Assembly: GCF_028641065.1 (NCBI RefSeq)
Contig: NC_073388.1
Location: 31,806,001-31,870,000 of the forward strand
DNA: 64,000 bases
Source of the DNA: Leucoraja erinacea
Lineage: Eukaryota
Reading direction: 5' to 3'
Positions 19,904 through 33,189 of this stretch are shown here, piece after piece. A program made the translations under genes and the position numbers. How positions within the stretch are numbered: the stretch's first letter is position 1; each line of letters starts with the position of its first letter. Below the pieces are notes generated by a model. The model did no database searches and was not told the origin of the DNA. It was given only the letters and a program-made list of their open reading frames with translations.

Positions 19904-20003
19904 NNNNNNNNNNNNNNNNNNNNNNNNNNNNNNNNNNNNNNNNNNNNNNNNNNNNNNNNNNNNNNNNNNNNNNNNNNNNNNNNNNNNNNNNNNNNNNNNN
20001 NNN
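19904..20003. other. Assembly gap (100 N)
   Basis: Run of N, preceded by ~700 bp of low-complexity, poor-looking sequence. Confidence 0.99.
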
Positions 20004-22830
20004 TCATCTTTTATAATTGACCAGCCTCTTCCCCACCACCAATGTCAGGCTAACTGGTCTATAATTCCCTGTTTTCTCTCTCCCGCCTTTCTTAAAAAGT
20101 GGGATAACATTAGCTACCCTCCAATCCACAGGAACTGATCCTGAGACTATAGAACATTGGAAAATTATCACCAATGCATCCACTATTTCTAGAGCCACTT
20201 CCTTAAGTACCCTGGTAGGCAGACCATCAGGCCCTGGGGATTTAGAAGCCTTCAGTCCCATCAGTCTACCCAACACCATTTCCTGCCTAATGTGGATTTC
20301 CCTCAGTTCCTCCGTCATTCCAGATCCTCTGGCCACCAGTACATCAGTAAGATTGTCAGTGTCCACCTTAGTGAAGATGGATCCAAAGTGCCTGTTCAAC
20401 TCATCTGCCATTTCCTTGTTCCCCATAATAAATTCACTTTTTTTCAGCCTTCAAGGGTCCAGCTTTGGTCTTTACTAATTTTTTCCTCTTCACATACCTA
20501 AAGAAGCTTTTACTATCCTCCTTTATATTCTTGGCTAGCTTATTCGTATCTCATCTTTTCTCCCCATATTGTCTTTTTAGTTATCTTCTGTTGCTCTTTA
20601 AACATTACACAATCCTCTTGCTTCCCACTCATCTTTGCTATGTTGTATTTCTTCTCTTTTATTTTTATACTGTTCCTGACGTCCCTTGTCAGCCATGGTC
20701 GCCTCTTACTCCCCTTGGAATATTTCTTCCTCCTAGGAATGAACTGATCCTGCACCTTCTGTATTATTCCTAAAAATTCCTGCCATTGTTGTTCCACTGT
20801 CATCTCTGCTAATGTATCTTTCCAGTCAACTTTGGCCAGTTCTTCCCTCATGGCCCCATAGTCCCCTTTATTCAACTGTAACACTGACACCACCGATCTA
20901 CCCTTCTCCCTCTCCAATTGTAGATGAAACCTGACCATATTATGGTCACTACCTCCTAATGGCTCATTAGCCTGAAATTCCTTTATCAAATCCGATTCAT
21001 TACATAACACTAAATCCAGAATTGCCATCTCCCTGGTAGGCTCCAATACAAGCAGCTCTAAGAATCCATCACGAAGGCACTATACAAAGTCCCTTTCTTG
21101 GGCTCCAGTACCAACCTGATTTTCCCATTCTACCTGCATATTGAAATCTCCCATAACAACCACAGCATTACCTTCGCTACATGCCGATTTTACCTCCTGA
21201 TTCAATTTGCACCCTATGTCCAGGCTACTGTTTGGGGGCCTGTAGATAAGTCCCATTAGGGTCTATTTACCCTTACAATTCCTCAGCTCTATCCATACTG
21301 ACTCCACATCTCCAGTTTCAGTCACCCCTTGCAAGGGACTGAATTTCATTCCTCCCCAACAGAGCTACCCCACCCCCTCTGCCCACCTGTCTGTCTTTTC
21401 GATAGGAGGTATACCCTTGGATATTCGGTTCCTAGCCCTGGCCCTCTTGTAGCCATGTCTCTGTAATTCCCACAACATCATACTTGTCAATTTCTAACTG
21501 AGCCTCAAGCTCGTCCACTTTATTCCTTATAATTCGCGCATTCATATACAGTACTTTGACCTCCGTATTCACTTCCCCCCTTGCACCACTCGCAATTGGC
21601 CTGACTTTACTCTTTTATCCCTTCTCGAACTTTCCTTCCCATTAATTTGAGAATCTTTTGTAATTTTTACTGTACTCCTGTACTCACTTCCTCTTCAACT
21701 CCATCTTTATACTCCCAATTTGTCAATCCCTTCCCCCCCCTCTCCCTCCCCCCCCCCCTCCCCCCCCTCCCCCCCCCCTCCCCCACTATTTAGTTTTAAA
21801 AACCCACACGTGTAGCCCTAGCAAACCTGCCTGCCACAATGTCAGTCCCCTCCAGTTAAGGTGTAACCCGTCCTCTTTGTACAGGTCACCCCTACCCAGA
21901 AGAGATCCCAGTGGTCTATAAATCTAAATCCTTGCTCCCTGCATCAGCCCCTCAGCCACACATCCAGATCCCCTATCGCCCTGTTCATGTCCTTACTAGC
22001 ATGAGGTACTGGAAGCAATCCAGAGATAACCACCCTAGAAATCCTGCTTTTCAGTCTTCTTCCTGACTCTCTGAACTCCTTCCTCTTCATCCTGATGTCA
22101 TTTGTGCCTACGTGCACAACTACTGCCGGCTGTTCACCTTCTCTCTCGAGGATGTTCTGAATTCGCTCGTGACATCCTGAACCCTGGCACCAGGGAGGCA
22201 ACAGACCATCCTTGTGTCTCGTCTGCTGCCACAGAATCTCCTGTCTGCTCCTAGGACAATGGAGTCACCCACCACTATGGCTCTGCCCGACACCGGTCGA
22301 GTCCCATCTCTAGGATTGGAGCCACCGACATGTCCGCCGCTCAGACTGGAAGCATCGTCTCCCCAACAGTTCCCAAGAGGGCGTACCTGTTTTCATTAGG
22401 CACAGCCTCCTGGGTCTCCTGCACTCCACAGTTACCACTCTTTCTCTCAGTCACACACCTTCATTCTTCCCGTAACCTCACTGTAGGTCCTGTCCAGGAA
22501 ACTCATTTTCCCAGATGGCCTGAGGTCATCCAGCTGCTTCTCCAGTGCCTCAACACAGTCCTTCAGGAGCTGAAGCTGGACGCACTTGCCACAGTTGTAG
22601 CAGCCAGAGGCTCCATCTGTGTCCCTGGGCACCCACATTCTGCAAGCATCACACTGTCTCATCTGTCCTGTCATGTGTTCACCACGTCCCGTCCGCTCCA
22701 GCTTTTTGCGTAGCCTCCTCTCTGAAGACTCTTGAAACAAAGACTCACAAGGGCGCTCCCCTAGAAATTTACCAATTTACAAACCAAATTCGTCAGTTTT
22801 AAACTGTTTTTACCCTGTGACTTACTCATC
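20004..22830 (-). mobile_element. CR1 LINE 5' portion: ORF1 (zinc finger/coiled coil + esterase) and ORF2 endonuclease, disrupted, cut by the gap
   Basis: ORF1 RQCDACRMW..CGKCVQLQLL and esterase motif VVVHVGTNDI; ORF2 EPTREMAILDLVL..LGGSDH, KSPGPDG, GNYRPVSLT. Confidence 0.9.
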
Positions 22831-22864
22831 TTTCCCACGGGAAACACACCACTCTCACCACATG

Positions 22865-22966
22865 TTGCCTATTTCCTTCGCTCCATAGATGCTGCTGCAC
22901 CCGCTGAGTTTCTCCAGCTTTTTTGTGTAACCTTCGATTCTCCAGCATCTGCAGTTCCCTCTTAAA
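22865..22966 (+). mobile_element. ~100-bp Penelope terminal-repeat (pLTR-like) insertion with 15-bp TSD
   Basis: Flanked by cactctcaccacatg (22850-22864, 22967-22981); first ~65 nt are the reverse complement of 28277-28342. Confidence 0.7.
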
Positions 22967-23606
22967 CACTCTCACCACATGATTTTTTTTTTTTCCAATG
23001 CCACTGTGCATTACAAATAGTGAATTTGTAAGTTTGCTTCCTTACATAATTCAAATCCTTTTGCTGAGAAATTGAACTGGACATTTCTAAGCAAGATTCA
23101 TCCTAGCACGATTGACATTTATTCAGTATCATTTGTGAACATTATATTGTCGGCATGCACAAGAGGTTGGACTAATAATATGCAGCCCACAATTTAGTAC
23201 TATTCTTTTTATTTCATGAGTAATTTGATTGGGTATTAGAGCTAAGTACAACACTCAAAGCAAGATAAATCCAATTGGTATGCATCAGCCTCTCCCACTA
23301 TTCGAATGATGATTTATTTTTAGCTTGATTTCATCTATCTGGCAGCTTGTAGTAACTGTGCATGACAAAAATCTATACATTTTAATAGTAAGATTAAACG
23401 AGTACTTACCAGTGCGAAGTTTGATCTGTATTTTATGAGGAGTTACGATGAGGGATTACGTGAAGAACCCACCCAGCGCGCAGGCGCGGCATACTTCCAA
23501 GCAGCGGTGTGGAATCACAGATAGACACAAGTTGAAGTAAAGATAGTAAAGACCAATGAGACATCAGTCCGAGTTTGATCTATACAATGAGGGTGGGAGC
23601 GGAGGG

Positions 23607-23719
23607 CACGTAATCCCTCATCGTAACTCCTCATAAAATACAGATCAAACTTCGCACTGGTAAGTACTCGTTTAATCTTACTATTTTACTTCGGAGTCAC
23701 GTGAGTGACTACGTGAAGA
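23607..23719. repeat. DIRS internal complementary region (ICR)
   Basis: 23607-23685 = reverse complement of 23384-23462 (79/79); 23683-23719 = reverse complement of 28148-28184 (37/37). Confidence 0.97.
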
Positions 23720-23880
23720 CTTCAAAGGTCTGTGATTTCAAACCGTGTAACAGTTATATCACTCACTGCCGAAAGATCATCGAGGGAGGAAGTGGTATCT
23801 AAAGACCAACAAGTTTGTTTAGTTTTAAAAAACAAATGTTTATTAACTACAACAAAAAATAGCTCCCCTGGGCTTTTAAA

Positions 23881-24891
23881 TTATAACTTTGCGGTTTCTA
23901 AAATTCTTTCCGCAAAGACGTCCTTTTCCATCAGCGGTTTCCTGTAGAATTTTTGGAATGTCGATTCCCTTGACCATCCCGCTGCTCTGAGGATGTGGTC
24001 TAGGGGAACCTGCATCCTATCCGCCGCTGAGGTGGACGCTGCCCTGGTTGAATGGGATTTAAAAACATCTGTGTTAATCCCTGCCATGTTAAGGACCTGT
24101 TTCAACCATCTGGATATTGTCTGGCTGGTAACCCGTCCAAAAGGCTTTTTGTGGCTGACCCATAAGGCTTTTTCTCTCCCTCTAAGAGTTTGGGTAGTGT
24201 CTAAATAATGATGAAGGTGGGTCACCACACACAGCCTAGGTTCTGGAGGGTATGCCCGGAAGATCAACGGGGAGTTGGATGTACCTGGTCTGCTCTGTTT
24301 TACCAACCCCGGCATGGTGAAAGTAATGGTATCTGGGGTGGTCACCATGTGGTTCAGATTTAACTGATGCAGCGACTGAACCCTCTGAGCTGAGACAAGC
24401 GCCATGAGCATGAGGGTCTTATAAGTGGACTGTTCCAGGCTCAGGGATCCCACCGGAGGCCAACCTCGAAGGTGTGTCAATACTACACTCACATCCCACA
24501 TATGGGTGTATCTAGGTGTAGGGGGTTTGGTGTTATAGATCCCTTTAAGGAGTTTGATAACCAGAGGGTGGGATCCCACACTATGCTGTCCTATGGGCAT
24601 AAGGTATGCGGACAGGGCGCTCCGAGCTGTATTGATGGCACTATAGCTCATCTTAAGGTCATGGTGCAGGTGGGCCAGGAACTCCAGCACATCCGAGATC
24701 GAAGCCGTCTTGTAGGATGTCCCTGCTTCCAGACAGTACTGTTCCCATTTCCTGATGTAGGTCAGGTACTGTTTTTTGGTGGAAACTCGCAGGGATGCCG
24801 ACATGGTGGCGATTGTTCTCTCTGATAACCCCAATCCCCGGTAAGGTCTGTTCAGAATCTGGAAACCAGGAGGTTCAATTTTTGGTGGCAT
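23881..24891 (-). CDS. DIRS tyrosine recombinase (lambda integrase family)
   Basis: 336-aa ORF; N-terminal core-binding region (YSAINTARSALS), catalytic R (SAQRV), K (LVKQ), HSTR, AGW, Y (FQKFYR). Confidence 0.93.
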   Translation of the reverse strand: MPPKIEPPGFQILNRPYRGLGLSERTIATMSASLRVSTKKQYLTYIRKWEQYCLEAGTSYKTASISDVLEFLAHLHHDLKMSYSAINTARSALSAYLMPIGQHSVGSHPLVIKLLKGIYNTKPPTPRYTHMWDVSVVLTHLRGWPPVGSLSLEQSTYKTLMLMALVSAQRVQSLHQLNLNHMVTTPDTITFTMPGLVKQSRPGTSNSPLIFRAYPPEPRLCVVTHLHHYLDTTQTLRGREKALWVSHKKPFGRVTSQTISRWLKQVLNMAGINTDVFKSHSTRAASTSAADRMQVPLDHILRAAGWSRESTFQKFYRKPLMEKDVFAERILETAKL

Positions 24892-26786
24892 GGATGACTA
24901 ATGCCAGTTACCGGGTGAGTCAATAATTGGGGGTGGTTATGAAGGACCATAGGTGTCTCTACCACCATGTCGTGGAACATTGGGAACCATGGTTGGGTAG
25001 GCCAGTCGGGCACGACCAGAATGCCAGAGGCTGAGTCTGCCTGAATTTTCTGGAGTACCCGACTGATGAGGCAGAAGGGAGGGAAGGCATAGAAAAAGAA
25101 ATTTCCCCAATCCAGCGTGAAGGCATCTACCACTGCTGCCTCTGGGTCTGGTTCCCAAGCCACATACATGGGTAGTTGGTGATTTAATCTAGACGCAAAC
25201 AAATCTATATCTGGCGTACCATATTGCTTGACAATTCTAGCAAATAGTTTTGGGTCCAACATCCATTCGATGTTGTCATTGAATTTTCGTGACCTGGTGT
25301 CCGCCACTAAATTTAGCTTGCCTGGTAAATAGGCAGCTGATAGCCAAATATGTCTCTCGACACACCATTGCCAGATTATAGTAGTTAATTTGTCGCATGA
25401 TACTGATTTTATGCCACCCATGTGCTGGATATAAGATACCGCCGTAGTGTTGTCAATCATAATCCTAACATGCACATGCCGCATATCAGATGTATATGCT
25501 TTTAGCCCATAAAAGGCGGCGAGCATTTCCAAGAAGTTAATGCCCAGTGATTGTAGTAGCGATGCCTCTGAGTTAGTCCATCTGCCACCTGTGCTGTCTA
25601 TGGAGTTAGTAGCTCCCCAGCCTAAAGCACTGGCATCCGTTGTAATGGTTATGTTAGGATTGGTGACGGCGATAGGACTGTAACTGTGCCAAATATTATC
25701 GACCCACCACTGAAGTTCTGATTTGGCTTCAGTGGGTAACTCCATTTTGCGGTCATAATGCCCTCTATTAAGACGTAGTGCATGAGTCCTTGCCCTTTGC
25801 AAATTTTGATAATGCAAGGGCCCATGTTGGGCAGCCGGGAATGCTGCTACTATAGAGCCAATAACTCTGGCTACGTGCCGTATCCTTGGTTGCGGTGTAG
25901 CAATTAAATTATTACAAGCTTCGATGAGTGAAACTTTTTTGTTTCTAGGCAGAGTGACAGTCATATGTATAGTGTCAATAGTGAAGCCTAAGTAATCCAT
26001 GTTAGTAGTAGGCCCCAATATTGATTTATCTGGGTGTAGGATGAATCCCAAAGTTTCAAGGAGTTGTTTAGTGGCTAAAACTCCTGCGACAGCTAGTTCC
26101 CTTGTTCTCCCTAATATGAGAACATCGTCCAGATAGGCCACGACTAAATGTTTTTGTTCTCTCAATTTTTTCATGGCCACTTTGAGAATTTTTGTAAATA
26201 ATCTGGGAACTGTCGTTAAACCATTGGGCAAGGCTCTGTACTGCCACAGTTGGCCCATCCAGATAAATTTCAGATATTTGTAATAATCCTTATGAATGGG
26301 TACTAAATAGTAAGCATCCTTGATATCTATGCTTGCCATGTAGTATCCCTTGGAGATCAGTTGTCTGGCAGTGACAAATGTCTCCATTTTGAAATGTTGA
26401 TACTCAACAGACTGATTGAGTGACGTCAAATCAATAATAATGCGACACCCACCATCTTTCTTGGCTTTAAGAAAAATATTTGATACAAATTCGTGCGGCT
26501 CGTGTGTGGTCATTTCTATGATGCCTTTAGCCACGAGCCTATCTAGTTCAGCTTGTCCTTCTACCTTCTCAAAAGCTGAGGGAAGGAATACCCTTTGGGG
26601 CATGTGCTGAACTGGAGGTTGTAAGCCTGGTTTGAATTCAATTTTGTATCCACTGATACTGTTGAGTATAAACTTATTGTTAGTTAAGGAGCACCAAACA
26701 TGCTTGAAGAACCTCAAACGTCCTCCTGTTAATACAGCACCCATTGTCTGTGTATGTTGGCAGGAACCAGACCCACCTACCTCCAT
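24852..26786 (-). CDS. DIRS pol: reverse transcriptase, RNase H and adenine-methyltransferase-like domain
   Basis: 644-aa ORF; RT SIDIKDAYY, LPNGL, AYLDD; RNase H TDAS, INFLE, DNTTAV, AD; MT-like DLFAS..YAFPPF. Confidence 0.95.
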   Translation of the reverse strand: MEVGGSGSCQHTQTMGAVLTGGRLRFFKHVWCSLTNNKFILNSISGYKIEFKPGLQPPVQHMPQRVFLPSAFEKVEGQAELDRLVAKGIIEMTTHEPHEFVSNIFLKAKKDGGCRIIIDLTSLNQSVEYQHFKMETFVTARQLISKGYYMASIDIKDAYYLVPIHKDYYKYLKFIWMGQLWQYRALPNGLTTVPRLFTKILKVAMKKLREQKHLVVAYLDDVLILGRTRELAVAGVLATKQLLETLGFILHPDKSILGPTTNMDYLGFTIDTIHMTVTLPRNKKVSLIEACNNLIATPQPRIRHVARVIGSIVAAFPAAQHGPLHYQNLQRARTHALRLNRGHYDRKMELPTEAKSELQWWVDNIWHSYSPIAVTNPNITITTDASALGWGATNSIDSTGGRWTNSEASLLQSLGINFLEMLAAFYGLKAYTSDMRHVHVRIMIDNTTAVSYIQHMGGIKSVSCDKLTTIIWQWCVERHIWLSAAYLPGKLNLVADTRSRKFNDNIEWMLDPKLFARIVKQYGTPDIDLFASRLNHQLPMYVAWEPDPEAAVVDAFTLDWGNFFFYAFPPFCLISRVLQKIQADSASGILVVPDWPTQPWFPMFHDMVVETPMVLHNHPQLLTHPVTGISHPCHQKLNLLVSRF

Positions 26787-26788
26787 GT

Positions 26789-28006
26789 TTATTTGTGGGG
26801 CCGTTTTCGGTAGGTTTGGCCCAAGGTTGTCCGTGTTGGTGCTGCGGTGGGGCGGCGCATCTTCCCACGGCTCCGCCCTGGGCCCCGCTCTAAAAAAGAG
26901 CTCTGGGGGTAGTGGGAGGCGGTCACCAGGCTTTCACCAGCTCGGTACCTGCTGGTGGATGCCGAGGCGTGCTGCCAACTGGGTGTCTTCACCCTGCTCG
27001 GTCCTGGCCCTGCCCTCATGAGGCCTACTGGTTTGGCCGCCTCTTCCAACTCCTTCAGTTTTTTGGCCAAATCTGCACCAAATAGCAGCGCCTCTCGTTC
27101 GGGCGCTGGAGCTTTGCAGAGGCCTGCATATGTCGAGTTGAGGGCAGGCCTAATGTTGTCCCGCCGTAGGCTATTGAGCTCATAAGTGGTGCTGCACATC
27201 AGTGCGAGTGCATCCTGCTGGGGTATGGTTAGGTCTTCGTTCCCCACGGACCGAGCAAAGGCGGTGATGGCTGCTGAGTGGAGTTTCAGGACCCGCTGCA
27301 TCTTTACTTCCTGAGCCCTGATCTGCTGCCCCATCTGGTTCCATATCTGCCCGTTGACCGTTTTGACCCGCAGCGCCTCGCAATTCTCTGGCGCTGTGTA
27401 CGTGTCAAGGGCCTGCTGGACGACCTTGTCCTGCAGCGGGTTGTTGGACAGCCTGTTAATGCTGGCCGCCATTCTGGGTGGCAATACCATCCCAGTCGTT
27501 GGGGGCGCTGCGTACCGGCCCACTACACCCAGTAGCTCTTCTTCTAGCACGCCCGGCATACTGATGTTATCCTCCGCCTGCCCTTGGGATAGGCCAGCCC
27601 AGTCCTGGCCTCCCTTACTGCCCTCGAACATAGAGGGTACAGAAGGGTGTGGTGAGGAGGAGGCCAAAGCCCGTCCTCCTGGGAGATGCCTAGCCTGCAT
27701 CTCCTCATCGATCATTTGCTCTAGGAGCTGCCTCATGCAGCTGATGCGAGCGTCTTCCCGTTTCGGTGGTGGAGAGCGTTCCCGTTCCTCCGATGAATCG
27801 GAGGACACCGGCCGGTCGGTTTTGTGAGTAGCCTTCCTCCCTGTGCGGGGCGTCGATATCTGCAGCACAGGGGGCGGCTCGGTGTCGGGTGAGCGGGAGC
27901 GTTGAAATGGCTCCTCCGCTTCGAGTGGCTGCCGCCCAGCTATGGACCCCTCCTCGGGTGGAGTTGGGCAGGCAGTCCTTCTGGCTGGTCGCTTTCGAGA
28001 GGCCAT
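26789..28006 (-). CDS. DIRS gag-like ORF1 (405 aa from the first ATG, MASRKRP)
   Basis: Open frame upstream of pol inside the element; PENCEAL..VN..IW, ELNSLRRDNIRP, LFGADL resemble DIRS gag; ATG at 28006 in attATGg context. Confidence 0.85.
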   Translation of the reverse strand: MASRKRPARRTACPTPPEEGSIAGRQPLEAEEPFQRSRSPDTEPPPVLQISTPRTGRKATHKTDRPVSSDSSEERERSPPPKREDARISCMRQLLEQMIDEEMQARHLPGGRALASSSPHPSVPSMFEGSKGGQDWAGLSQGQAEDNISMPGVLEEELLGVVGRYAAPPTTGMVLPPRMAASINRLSNNPLQDKVVQQALDTYTAPENCEALRVKTVNGQIWNQMGQQIRAQEVKMQRVLKLHSAAITAFARSVGNEDLTIPQQDALALMCSTTYELNSLRRDNIRPALNSTYAGLCKAPAPEREALLFGADLAKKLKELEEAAKPVGLMRAGPGPSRVKTPSWQHASASTSRYRAGESLVTASHYPQSSFLERGPGRSRGKMRRPTAAPTRTTLGQTYRKRPHK

Positions 28007-28114
28007 AATTCTCCCTTGAGCGACTCTGTAACACAAAAAAGGCACTTACCTGAGGTCTTGTCTTTATGCTGCAGCTGGAGAGCCTGGCTCCAGCTGCTGC
28101 CGCTGTTGCACTGC

Positions 28115-28171
28115 TGACGTAATGCTGCGCCTGCGCGCTGGGTGGGTTCTTCACGTAGTCACTCACGTGAC
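28115..28171. promoter_or_regulatory. Putative DIRS internal promoter motifs (CRE-like, NRF1-like, E-box)
   Basis: tgacgtaa 28115-28122, tgcgcctgcgcg 28126-28137, cacgtg 28164-28169 clustered at the element 5' end; motif match only. Confidence 0.4.
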
Positions 28172-28274
28172 TCCGAAGTAAAATTGCTTTCTTCTTAGTC
28201 ATTGAGGGAAAGGAATGCAGGTGATCCATGCAGCTTTTAACTATTTTAATAAAAGTACCCATATTGTATTGATT

Positions 28275-28428
28275 GGTACACAAAAAAGCTGGTGAAACTC
28301 AGCGGGGTGCAGCAGCATCTATGGAGCGAAGGAAATAGGCAACGTTTCGGGCCGAAACCCTTCTTCAGACTGATCGGGGGCGGGGGTGGGCGGGGACAAG
28401 AAAGGAAAAAGGAGGAGGAGCCCGAAGG
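28275..28428 (-). mobile_element. Penelope terminal repeat fragment with minimal hammerhead-like motif
   Basis: Minus strand reads ctgaagaagggtttcggcccgaaacgttgcctatttcc..gctgagtttc..cagcttttttgtg. Confidence 0.7.
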
Positions 28429-28754
28429 TATCCTGGTATTGTGGCTGATCCTTCACAGCTTGGCAGGAGACAATCAAGTGTCTTCAACAAGTATTTGAGT
28501 TGCCACCTCCAGTGCAATGTTTCCTACAGATAAAGCTCAGTCTAATTGGAGATCAGTGCTATCATAGTGTCTGTTGCACAACTTTCACCAACTGCTGAGT
28601 AGTCATGTCAAGTATAGGGGATGACTGGGCTGGCATGAGCAGTTCAATCTTAACTTCTCCATCTTGACTCAATAAATCTCATTTGTTTACAAACATGTTT
28701 TTATCAGCTTTATATCCAATCCACAATCATTTGTTCATAAGCATCAAGCGATTT

Positions 28755-28922
28755 ATAGAATATAGAACAGCAAAAGAACAGGCTCTTCGGCTCACATTGT
28801 CTGTTCCAAACATGTTGCCAAGACCATCTCTTATCTACCTACGCATAATCCATATCTTTCCATTCCCTGCATATCCATATGCCCATCCAAATGCCTTTTA
28901 AATGCCACTATTGTATCTACCT
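28755..28922 (-). mobile_element. CR1-type 3' tail fragment
   Basis: atagaatatagaacagc..gaacaggctcttcggctcac..catatctttccattccctgcatatccat. Confidence 0.55.
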
Positions 28923-28924
28923 CT

Positions 28925-30020
28925 GGCACAATGGATTCAACACCATTGTTCCAGAGCTACTACATTACAAACTCTCCAAGTTGACTGTGCCTGAACCCGT
29001 CTGTCAGTGGATCACCAACTTCCTGACAGACAAAAAGCACCATGTGAAGCTGGGAAAACACATCTCAGACCCGCAGACCCTCAACATAGGAGCACCACAA
29101 GGCAATGTACTCTCCTCTCCTTTACTCTCTCTACACCAACGACTGCTCCTCCACAGACTTCTCTATCAAGCTTCTCAAGTTTGGGGACGACAAAACCCTG
29201 ATGGACTGATCCAGGATGGGAAGGAATCTGCCTACAGACAGGAAGTGGCACAGCTGGCATCCTGATGCCTTTGTGACAACCTGGAGCTCAATGCTCTTAA
29301 GACATTGGAATTGATAGTAGACTTTAGGAGAAGTCCCCCTCCCCTCCCCCCACTCACCATCAACAACACCACAGTCACATCTGTGGAGTCTTTTAAATTC
29401 CTCGGAACCAACATCTCCAAGGACCTTAAATGGGAGGCCACCATCGACTCCACATCCAAAAAGGCCCAACAGTGGATGTACTTCCTGCGGCAGCCGAGGA
29501 AACACAATCTGCCACAAGCAATGATGGTCCAATGCTATACTGCCATCGTACAGTCTGTCCTCACCTTCCCATCATGGTCTGGTTTGGCTCAGCCACCAAG
29601 CATGACATAGTTTGATCAGCTGAGAAGGTTGTTGGCTGCAACCTTCACTCCATTGACGAACTGTACACTGCAAGTGCCAGGAAGCGAGCGGGTAGGATCA
29701 TCTCTGACCCCTCTCACCCTGGCCACAAACTCTTTGAAGCACTTCCCTCTGGAAGGCGACTCTGGACTGTCAAAGCCGCCACAGCCATGACATAAAAACA
29801 GTTTTTTTCTGCGAGCACTAGTACTACTCAGTAGCCTCCTTTTGCTCTGGTATTTTATTTCATTCACATGTTTAAACTATAATGTTTTATTCTCAATTTT
29901 TTAATGTTTTATGTTTTATTCTTAATTGTTTACCTATGTCTTGTTACTTGTAAGCGGAGCACCACGGCAAATTCCTTGTATGTGTACATACTTGGCCAAT
30001 AAACTTATTCATCCATTCAT
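28925..30020 (+). mobile_element. 5'-truncated Rex1/Babar-type LINE
   Basis: FNTIVPELL, WITNFLTD, GAPQG, FKFLGTNISKDLKW..KKAQQWMYFLR; 3' tail ending cttggccaataaacttattcat. Confidence 0.85.
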
Positions 30021-31077
30021 GCATTAATTACTGCCCTACCTTAGGGCCAAAATTCCCCTCAACAAATATTACAAGAAAAAAAGAATATGGGTCTCTTTAC
30101 GATTGTGGGGATTTTACTGTATTCATTTTGACTTTCCAACATGACAGTCACCACACTTCAAAGCTACAAAGCTATTCATTTAAAAATTCTAAAAAATGAC
30201 ACCCCACACACAGCATTCCATTATAATCAGAGATTCTCCACACCTTCTCAAGGAGATGATCAATTGATAGAAGTTTCCACTTCAATAGAAAATTGCAAGC
30301 CGTTTAATATGAATATATCTTATTGTTGGGTTAATAGCAGAGGCTAACTCAAAAAGTAAGCTGAAAAACCTATCATCATGCAGCCAGGATCTTACAATTG
30401 TGTTTAATTATTACGTTATGAAGTTTGGAAGCTCAATTCATTAGCTAGAAAATGTCACCAATTGTACCAGCAATATGAACATGAGTTGGCCATCATCTCC
30501 ACATAACTTCTACAATCAATCGGATTGTCCATGGTGCTATATCAATTTCAATGATGTGCTTCTGTTCTATATTTCTTATACTCCTTCTCAGTAACCAATT
30601 TGCTTTTACTTAAATATTTTAATTGAGCACACATAGCCTGTTTGGGAGAGAAAACCAAAAACTGCAGATGTTTGAAATATAAAATAAAAATGAAAATTGC
30701 TGGAACTACTCAGCCAGTCAGGCCACATCAGGTGTAAGACCATTCATATGTATTTATATCTTGCAGATTAAATATCCACATCAGGTTAGAAAGGTCTGTA
30801 TAAAAAGTACTGTGAACAATCCTTGTGTAGATTATTCAGACTCCCTCATTAGACTGGAGCACACTGATGCTGAGTTACAGGTCCATTAGGATCTGCTGGC
30901 TTGTTAGCCAAGGGCACAACTCTGACTTCCAGGTCTGTATTTTGTGATGCAAACATTGTAAACATACTGGAGACCAGATAGGTATACACATAACCTTTAA
31001 TTCTGCCTCTGGACTCACCAGTGGGTGATATTTCCTAATTTATTAATCTGAGAAGCCAGAAGCACTTCATGTCTTGT

Positions 31078-31240
31078 GTCATAGAGTCTTAGAGTCATAC
31101 AGCGTGGACACAGACCCTTCGGACCAACTTGCACAGGCCGACAAACCTGCCCCATCTAGACTAATCCCACCAGCATGTGTTTGGCCCATATCCCTCTAAA
31201 CCTACCCTATCCATGGGCCTGTCCAAATGGTTTATAAACA
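31078..31240 (-). mobile_element. CR1 3' terminus
   Basis: agagtcatacagcgtggacacagacccttcgg..ggcccatatccctctaaacc. Confidence 0.7.
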
Positions 31241-33189
31241 TGCTTTAGTTTTATACTAGCTGTGACTAGCCCATCCATGTGCCTTTAATCATTTGAATAG
31301 GGCTGCAACCATTCTAAAGGTAAGTTTATTTTTTCAACTTTTATTTTTGTGAATTAGAAGTTTCATGACTTTTTAAATGAGACATTTAAAAGCAGTGACA
31401 ACCCATTGGACAGAACGAGCTGTACGAGGTCACAAGGCAGTCTGTGGGCCATGTCTGTGCCTGTTGTCTGTGGATGAGCCACCACTCACAACTTCATAAG
31501 CCTCAGTGAAGCTCGTGGCTGCAATGGGAGTAGTGCAATAAGAGCTGAGCAACCACAAAAATGCATCACAGTTTGAGTAAGTGCAGATAGTGACAGGACA
31601 ATGTGAGCTGGTTTCAGGGTCATAGTTCAATTACTCAAAGATCAATTTCCAGAAGTTCTGAGTGGACGTCTCCCTCTATGCCAGAGGTTTTTCTAACTAG
31701 AAGTTTGCAAAATACCTTTCCCCCACCCCACCCACATCAATGTCCGGCACTCCCATTATCCTCATCATGAACTGCTAGTTTTCCAAACCTCACAACCACT
31801 CCCAAGGTCTTGACATTAAGAAGGTGACTCTCCTTGTATGGGATAGTTTCAAATTCTGGATTGTAGTGTTGAAAGTCCAACATAATTGCTCTGCTTCATA
31901 CATTGTTTCCTCCACCGTGTAATCCCATTTAAGATCCTATGAATGTTATGGTTGACAAAGTCATCTTAATGGGCTTTTTCCCTGAACAGTTGGCTAAACC
32001 GATGCTTTTATTTCCTTCAATTACTATTTAACACTGCATTAAGCCAATAGAAAAAAAAACAGAGCTCTATAAAACTCCTGAAATAAGTCAAAATCAACTA
32101 TTCAGCAATTTTCAACTTGATAATTAGATGAATAAATTATGACAATCTCAGCACTATGTTCTATATTTTTAATGAATATACATGTAATGGCAATTATTTA
32201 ACTTTACAATGTCCAACTTTTATTTGCCGTTACTACACTGGCAAGGAGGAGTGGAGTTTACGCAGTCGATGTTAAAAAACAAATCTTCCAGTCATAATTT
32301 CCAGTATAATCGATTTTAATTGAAGTTGTTGTAAATACAAAGAAGTGTCTTATAAAAATTGTAGCTTTCCATTCTTACTATCTGAACTGGTAAAAATTGT
32401 GTCTTCTATTCCCGTGCCAGCACCCGTCTGATCTGACCACTCCCTGTCGTATCACTTAGTTCAATCTGTCATGCCCATCTACGTATCAAAATCCTACACT
32501 TAAGCGTACAGAACAATACAGCTAGACATAACTAGACAAGATAATAAAATATGCTAACAGCAACTAGCTTAAGCATGAATGGCTCCTACAATACATTTTT
32601 CAAACACATAATCAAAGAAATTGGGCAATAATGAACTAAAATATAGCCAATTAACACGGAAAGCAAGTGCATCTTAGTGTTGGGAATATTCACTAATAAC
32701 GTACTCAGTTAAGTACAGTTGACTCATCTTTTCTGAACAAAGGCAATATGAAATTTTGAAAAACATAATTGCACTCAGAATGTTGCATTGTGCAACTGCA
32801 ACACAGTTGATTAATGTTTGAAACTAACATAAGTGCAATTAAACATTATCAGTAGAAGAAAAGTAATAGGCAAGAACAAAGTCAGGAAATCAGAGGAATC
32901 ATTAGCAGAATTTTTTATTAACATTATATAATGAGGTTGTGATAGATGCTTACTAATTTAATATTTTCAAACCAATCCTTTCCCTTGCATGATACTTTTC
33001 TCTTATTAACAATCGTTTTAATTTTTATATTTTTCAAGTCCTTTTATATTCTGATTGCACCTGTGCAGCACCAGAGGATCAAACATCTTTGACCATTGCT
33101 ATTCCATCATCAAAGATACCTATCGCTCCATCTCCCCCCCCCCCCCCCCCCCCCCCCCCCCCATTTTGGGAAATCAAAGCACCTGGCTA

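Follow-up and report, generated by a model that had tools for sequence, protein, structure and literature searches.

Predicted excision of pol as an intron and a gag frameshift signal as a route to the recombinase of a DIRS1-type retrotransposon from Leucoraja erinacea

The 64,000-nucleotide stretch of the Leucoraja erinacea genome analyzed here (RefSeq assembly GCF_028641065.1, contig NC_073388.1, positions 31,806,001–31,870,000 of the forward strand; hereafter the window, numbered from its first letter) carries on its minus strand a DIRS1-type retrotransposon with a gag-like frame, a pol frame and a tyrosine recombinase frame. The best model for the expression of the latter, which we regard as probable, is that a spliced RNA together with a single -1 frameshift at the end of gag yields the recombinase as a Gag-linker-recombinase fusion. 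The splice alone, that is, the excision of pol as an intron, can be proposed with high confidence. The evidence consists of the signals, their phase, their conservation, and gene models of third parties that carry the junction; from these we infer splicing in L. erinacea, the frameshift and a role in packaging. The features needed for the argument are the following:

23384..28184, minus strand: DIRS1-type retrotransposon, apparently full length, young and multicopy, delimited by repeat pairs; mapped reads exit the element at 28184
26789..28006, minus strand: gag-like ORF1, 405 aa, with a TAA stop two bases ahead of the pol ATG
26891..26897, minus strand: slippery T TTT TTA heptamer of the gag frame, where a -1 frameshift is predicted
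26781..26891, minus strand: transframe linker; its 37 codons, read in the -1 frame, connect the slip site with the donor and end in M-E
24852..26933, minus strand: pol open frame, ATG at 26786, 644 aa, reverse transcriptase (RT) followed by presumed RNase H- and methyltransferase-like regions
26775..26783, minus strand: splice donor GAG/GTAGGT, phase 0; the intron would start at 26780
24859..26780, minus strand: predicted 1922-nt intron with nearly all of pol
24859..24873, minus strand: splice acceptor ...ctggtttccag/, with the intron end cctcctggtttccag at 24859
23881..24858, minus strand: tyrosine recombinase exon, 325 codons, Phage_integrase match with E 1.3e-7

According to the model, one transcript would give rise to four proteins. 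The unspliced RNA would be translated either into Gag (405 aa) or, after slipping back by one base at U UUU UUA (26897–26891), into a Gag-Pol of about 1051 aa (372 + 37 + 642 codons), while the RNA from which 26780–24859 has been removed would again produce Gag and, with the same slip, a Gag-linker-recombinase of about 734 aa (372 + 37 + 325 codons). By analogy with retroviral Gag-Pol, particles would receive both enzymes through the Gag moiety, in a ratio that is low and fixed.

Predicted splice sites around pol

The original prediction, made from the letters of the window, had described pol as a phase-0 intron of 1922 nt on the minus strand, with a donor in ATG GAG/GTAGGT at 26780 and an acceptor cctcctggtttccag at 24859, and these positions proved to be exact. 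Its account of the product was equally accurate: excision would join M-E to the 325-codon recombinase frame (from 24858), giving 327 aa, and would replace 11 residues, the recombinase having 336 codons when counted from the ATG at 24891 and 325 from 24858. The pol stop is located 4 nt past the acceptor. When scored by a rough weight matrix of approximate frequencies in place of MaxEntScan, the donor ranked third among 209 GT and the acceptor third among 337 AG in the element.

The comparison set included 49 loci, the window and 48 stretches hand-picked from genome matches to span different families, which formed eight clusters at 85% recombinase DNA identity; one of those was a broken singleton (L050), leaving seven usable. 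The recombinase DNA identity among the cluster representatives was 56–77% (58–77% for those of the usable groups), and over the seven usable element groups the recombinases were 50–100% identical. A donor of the form GAG/GTRRG was located in 43 of the 49 loci and in all seven usable clusters; L077 also has a donor, outside the search pattern, and the stretches of L048, L050, L059, L065 and L070 do not contain the 5' part of pol. A YAG acceptor was present at the homologous place in 46 of the 49 loci, again in all seven clusters. The acceptor of 21 of these 46 copies reads TAG and thereby stops the recombinase frame, which thus opens right at the acceptor and overlaps with pol by only 4 nt. Since L058/L060 and L059/L063/L065 combine such a TAG acceptor with a lack of Met within the first 50 recombinase codons, neither upstream nor nearby downstream initiation would work there. 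Donor and acceptor of the GT-AG intron consensus are present, conserved and in phase. The original prediction had suggested checking that donor, acceptor and phase are conserved among related DIRS groups while the ATG at 24891 is not; both sites recurred in all seven groups, and an in-frame ATG above the acceptor that could serve as a start was present in only 15 of 46 copies.

Conservation of the donor concerns the nucleotides more than the protein. Its codons GAG GTA GGT are identical in five of five intact pol copies (four clusters), compared with 15 of 99 invariant four-fold codon columns, and among the control columns of these five copies none of 13 was all-GAG, one of 10 all-GTA and one of 24 all-GGT. 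Furthermore, GTAGGT and GTAAGT alternate at the donor (Gly/Ser), indicating that the donor is preserved and the residue is not. Nucleotide conservation also extends beyond the donor to about +15 (26780–26763, minus strand), with the second GGT codon identical in five of five copies; this stretch is a possible splicing enhancer or peptide motif.

A putative slippery site and the start of the recombinase

The conserved feature upstream of the donor is a -1 slippery site in gag, which the original prediction had not noted, and not the pol ATG. As is typical of -1 frameshift signals, a heptamer of the X XXY YYZ type stands in phase and is followed by an open -1 frame. Across the skate copies the heptamer is located 110–137 nt above the donor; it is in phase in 31 of the 43 copies with a located donor, and the -1 frame is open from heptamer to donor in 30 of those 31. 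Among 21 representatives, the -1 frame after the slip site was open in 21 and the +1 frame in one, while over an equal length upstream of the slip site the -1 frame was open in two, a contrast that is overstated because the representatives were chosen for an in-phase heptamer and L074, with a stop in the linker, was excluded (L091 and L117 each have two heptamers, of which the nearer one was used). Pol occupies the -1 frame of gag, and the recombinase the -1 frame of pol.

The original prediction had assigned a different role to the region of the donor, namely a splice switch that chooses between RT and recombinase behind one shared ATG at 26786. As a general mechanism this did not hold up: the pol ATG is replaced by ATA in five and by ACA in two of the 43 copies, each case being a whole cluster, and five of the six echinoderm gene models with the junction (see below) contain no Met between slip site and junction. 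What stands is that pol is probably an intron, supported by the conservation of the sites, the TAG-stop acceptors and the echinoderm models; the recombinase is more likely placed behind Gag by a frameshift than under the pol ATG. A variant of the shared start would keep the splice and dispense with the frameshift, Pol and recombinase both starting at the 26786 ATG, reached either by ribosomes that re-initiate past the gag stop (TAA-NN-ATG) or by leaky access. In line with it, ATG GAG/GT is kept in 36 of 43 copies and five of seven groups, the spliced M-E-I-L places Met in a column where many homologues have Met, and a stable frameshift stimulator was not found. Nevertheless, we consider this variant improbable, for the ATA and ACA replacements affect two groups, the linkers of L052 and L084, like those of the five echinoderm models, are without Met, the ATG lies behind a 405-codon gag, and the in-phase heptamer with its open -1 frame would be left unexplained.

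A third possibility involves a further splice donor in the leader:

28041..28052, minus strand: leader splice donor CAG/GTAAGT; the intron would start at 28049; top score among the 209 donors

This donor might be joined to the U-tract TTTTTTAG, used as an acceptor, for the expression of Pol, and either onward or directly to 24859 for that of the recombinase, which would start at an exon-2 ATG or at the ATG at 24804, standing in good context; in that case, the apparent slippery site would act as a 3' splice site. Apart from the strength of the leader donor, a counterpart of which is present in 30 of 31 copies checked, and the context GCCACCATG at 24804, such an arrangement is favored by the G that follows TTTTTTA in 10 of 10 skate and six of seven invertebrate representatives. 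On the other hand, L091, L117/118, L126 and L127 have A AAA AAC instead of the heptamer, in unchanged phase, and L101 has no AG after the heptamer; moreover, the five Gag-containing echinoderm models keep F-F-R, which means that no splicing occurs after the AG there. An open frame above an ATG would not be needed, yet the frame is open. The 24804 ATG is missing in three groups and its use would remove the first 18 conserved residues, and no such joint was seen in RNA. With these points against it, the leader-donor route appears unlikely, and the reading with a gag frameshift followed by either Pol or the recombinase is preferred.

In the copies checked, the leader donor itself (window positions 28049 and 28026, minus strand) is positioned about 30–75 nt ahead of the gag ATG, often with a pyrimidine tract and an AG about 24–65 nt past it, a spacing too short for an ordinary intron; it may serve as a binding element for U1 or be used together with another site. 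The second-best donor-like motif, CTG/GTAAGT at 23409 (minus strand), belongs to the right extension, with its complement in the internal complementary region, and would precede the left end only if the element were circular or in tandem.

Gene models, distant loci and RNA

Annotation models of three echinoderm genera, Strongylocentrotus (P0129 and P0133), Diadema (P0190 and P0191) and Amphiura (P0192 and P0322), carry the junction. All six read linker-E/recombinase, the junction being located 25 residues ahead of the S-T-x-x-Q-Y motif, that is, in the column of the window's acceptor. Two sea-urchin isoforms of a single locus, named in the RefSeq manner, differ exactly at this column: X2, the unspliced one, reads MLQ/VMRQ, while X1 (P0129) has a 40-residue linker ending in E and then /VMRQ. 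Annotated isoforms of the RefSeq kind usually rest on RNA-seq. In P0133 the order is Gag, A-F-F-R, linker and E/VMRQ, and the same F-F-R linker and E/ junction were found in the Diadema and Amphiura models. The urchin linker corresponds to the -1 frame of the Gag C-terminus without a mismatch over 50 codons (next best offset 16/29), and the sea-urchin proteins, read in their two frames, leave only T TTT TTA as the sequence of the slip site; the echinoderm models presumably bridge the frameshift upstream of F-F-R by a predicted intron. Two wasp models (P0293 and P0323) reading E/VIRR at the junction column were not counted, as the stretch in question may be unspliced recombinase frame.

The search was further extended to 77 loci from metagenome and genome collections, 26 of which include the starts of both RT and recombinase. 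In 15 of the 26, U UUU UUA or A AAA AAC was present in the same phase; four had another heptamer and seven none. Most of the 26 had a phase-0 donor 6–63 nt ahead of the RT start. Taken together with the skate and echinoderm data, these results incline us, if only slightly, to a general scheme for animal DIRS1 elements from skates to echinoderms, in which an HIV-type -1 frameshift ending gag would feed either Pol or the recombinase, the splicing of pol making the choice and both enzymes being fused to Gag; the acceptor would have moved between lineages (to the end of pol or to upstream F-P-P-F-S codons), with donor and slip site kept.

Several results weigh against the proposed route. The first concerns RNA. 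The junction reads that the original prediction had recommended looking for were not found: no 24858–26781 joint was present in the raw RNA reads X23, X24 and X21 (mapped at 1–5% of each run) or in the contigs X2, all mapped at likeness 80 without the flanking short interspersed element (SINE), at a low depth of approximately 14–22 reads at the donor in the raw runs and of 36 in the contigs. Two joints were listed, neither of them at the predicted sites, and an X2 contig (26143–26874) spans the donor unspliced. With the flanking SINE (28246–28400) included, using X23, X24, X1 and X3, the predicted joint was absent among the joints listed, which were filled by the SINE, a further 34 joints lying beyond these. 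The reads fell on both strands and were mostly less than 99% alike, so that they probably represent read-through of old copies and are weak evidence; to that extent they count against strong splicing in these samples. Spliced genomic copies of the window's family numbered 0, compared with 527 unspliced donor motifs, in a search that used three patterns excluding the unspliced form, required exact matches and covered part of the families; the single match to the acceptor-side pattern was a related unspliced element, and the four matches to the donor-side pattern were not DIRS. The second group of results concerns the frameshift signal: the heptamer is out of phase in six and absent in another six of the 43 copies, probably through decay, and the RNA behind the slip site of the window does not exceed shuffled sequences in stability (z 0.24 and 0.83), z falling below -1.5 in just one of the 21 representatives. 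A 21 kcal/mol stem can form there, although shuffles fold equally well. Third, the echinoderm junctions were read from the protein sequences of annotation models; among 12 proteins with both Gag and recombinase parts, five show the junction form, three also contain pol and four are joined elsewhere or ambiguously, and longer proteins in which full Pol follows the urchin linker were absent from a weak search. Finally, an acceptor stood at the homologous place in just one of the 26 metagenome loci (L084), most others having a phase-0 candidate 78–216 nt upstream, mostly on pyrimidine-rich F-P-P-F-S codons, so that the signal is confounded by codon make-up. The acceptor AG of the skate copies is likewise less telling alone: it doubles as an Arg codon of Pol, and seven of 14 invariant control Arg columns are all-AGR.

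These results can be accommodated if there is no splicing at all and the sites arise as a side effect of encoding protein motifs (E-V-G/S and C-R), the recombinase being made through a -1 frameshift from Pol, an internal promoter or the 24891 ATG. The absence of junction reads and spliced copies in the present data would then be expected, Arg codon use accounts for the acceptor AG in half of the control columns, the recombinase sits in the appropriate -1 frame, and a probable frameshift of this kind in Ngaro is attributed to Poulter and Butler (2015) in the quoting passage of PMC13003380. As a general route, however, a Pol-to-recombinase frameshift was rejected, because pol and recombinase share just 4 nt in 21 of 46 copies, and a slippery heptamer lies within their overlap in one of 46. 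With a usable upstream ATG confined to the 15 copies mentioned above, donor third positions invariant in comparison with the controls, and six echinoderm models of three genera skipping pol at homologous boundaries, an explanation without splicing is doubtful, and excision of pol remains the favored one.

Some distant loci showed other arrangements. In L126, L127 and L131 a TAG inside the F-P-P-F-S codons of pol, 174–216 nt above the start of homology, is the exact point where the recombinase frame opens, and a stop serving as acceptor at this place may explain the N-terminal extensions of 67–105 residues in many homologues. L104, L114, L120, L154 and L155 are long-overlap elements, with the recombinase frame open 2–3.3 kb above its start and without the splice and slip design, and L113, L114, L120 and L125 have instead a strong phase-1 donor 107–188 nt ahead of RT. 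No relative was found in viral contigs. A DIRS-type recombinase relative (41%) from the prokaryote genome search, L160, lies on a 705-kb contig of a Nitrospirales metagenome-assembled genome and is probably misbinned host DNA.

Known retroelements and structure of the element

DIRS1 elements occur in large numbers in fish, amphibians, reptiles and many invertebrates. If correct, the proposed route would explain how this widespread group of animal retrotransposons makes a recombinase that often lacks a start codon of its own, and would correct the annotation of thousands of recombinase ORFs without start codons. A retroelement that layers alternative splicing on frameshifting would also be rare; since each of the two is known from other retroelements, the arrangement would be new and not the kind of machinery.

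The Gag-Pol frameshift of the HIV-1 type uses the heptamer U UUU UUA. The element in the window resembles retroviral Gag-Pol in the same heptamer and phase, the F-F-R start of the transframe region and a gag tail overlapping the -1 frame; it differs in having no protease and no detected stable stimulatory hairpin, and in that the -1 frame would lead to either enzyme depending on the splice. Retroviral and gypsy env are expressed from a spliced subgenomic RNA with its own start. In contrast to these elements, and also to copia, the integration enzyme in the present element is not part of Pol. In Ty1/copia elements the protein ratio is likewise set by alternative splicing of RNA from one promoter, as described in the part of PMC5580714 covered; the spliced copia RNA makes Gag alone, whereas the splice predicted here would swap the enzyme behind the frameshift. 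The Ngaro recombinase ORF, according to Poulter and Butler (2015) as quoted in PMC13003380, begins where pol ends, lies in the -1 frame and shows no obvious start; a pol-to-recombinase frameshift was proposed for it. The window recombinase ORF is similar in all three respects, but the element has inverted instead of split direct repeats, and its overlap of 4–43 nt is free of slippery sites in 45 of 46 copies.

DIRS1-like retrotransposons share three ORFs (gag-like, pol with RT, recombinase), inverted terminal repeats, an internal complementary region and a right extension (PMC3266345, PMC9210276 and PMC5633606, in the text covered). The same portions of these papers describe ORF overlaps and mention neither a splice nor a gag-pol frameshift: 'splic' has 0 occurrences in what was covered of PMC3266345 and PMC9210276, where 'frameshift' concerns decayed copies. 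Compared with the elements described there, the pol/recombinase overlap in the window is minimal and bounded by splice sites. The literature covered does not address the translation of the second and third DIRS1 ORFs, and no description of DIRS1 pol splicing or of a gag slippery site was found in the literature searched, although key reviews, older papers by Goodwin and Poulter, Repbase reports and supplements fell outside the search and may hold an earlier mention.

The assignment of the element to the DIRS1-like group follows from the presence of RT, a tyrosine recombinase instead of a DDE integrase, a gag-like ORF1, and inverted terminal repeats with an internal complementary region and extension:

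28122..28184, minus strand: left terminus with left inverted terminal repeat, repeat pairs I2 (28122–28165 with 23449–23492) and I4 (28148–28184 with 23683–23719)
23384..23492, minus strand: right inverted terminal repeat and right extension, repeat pairs I1 and I2
23607..23719, minus strand: internal complementary region, two halves, repeat pairs I1 and I4

No long direct repeat, as in the split direct repeats of Ngaro and PAT elements, was found within 20000–32000. The gag-like ORF1 has no Pfam match but is homologous to the N-terminal part of urchin proteins derived from DIRS; with the sea-urchin model P0133 it shares 32% identity across 172 aa. Pol matches RVT_1 (Pfam, E 3.3e-18); its presumed RNase H and methyltransferase regions were recognized by eye from motifs, with no Pfam match at E 0.01. 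Regions of both kinds belong to the description of the DIRS family in the part of PMC3266345 covered. The Phage_integrase match of the recombinase reached 32 bits, compared with a cut-off of 27.1, and its SAM-like N-terminal matches remained under the cut-off; in the recombinase alignment (A1), H-S-T-R and the catalytic-type residues R159, K187, R272 and Y305 are invariant. The element is young: 40 of 40 scored DNA matches were 98–100% identical, 123 of 123 scored recombinase protein matches were 95–100% identical and nearly all open, and the exact donor motif of its family occurs at the 527 genomic places mentioned above.

The element is flanked by two opposite copies of a very abundant SINE-like short repeat (22864–22938 and 28268–28370), which is heavily represented in RNA, and fragments of the RT of long interspersed elements were recognized by eye at about 20500–22800 and 28850–29600.

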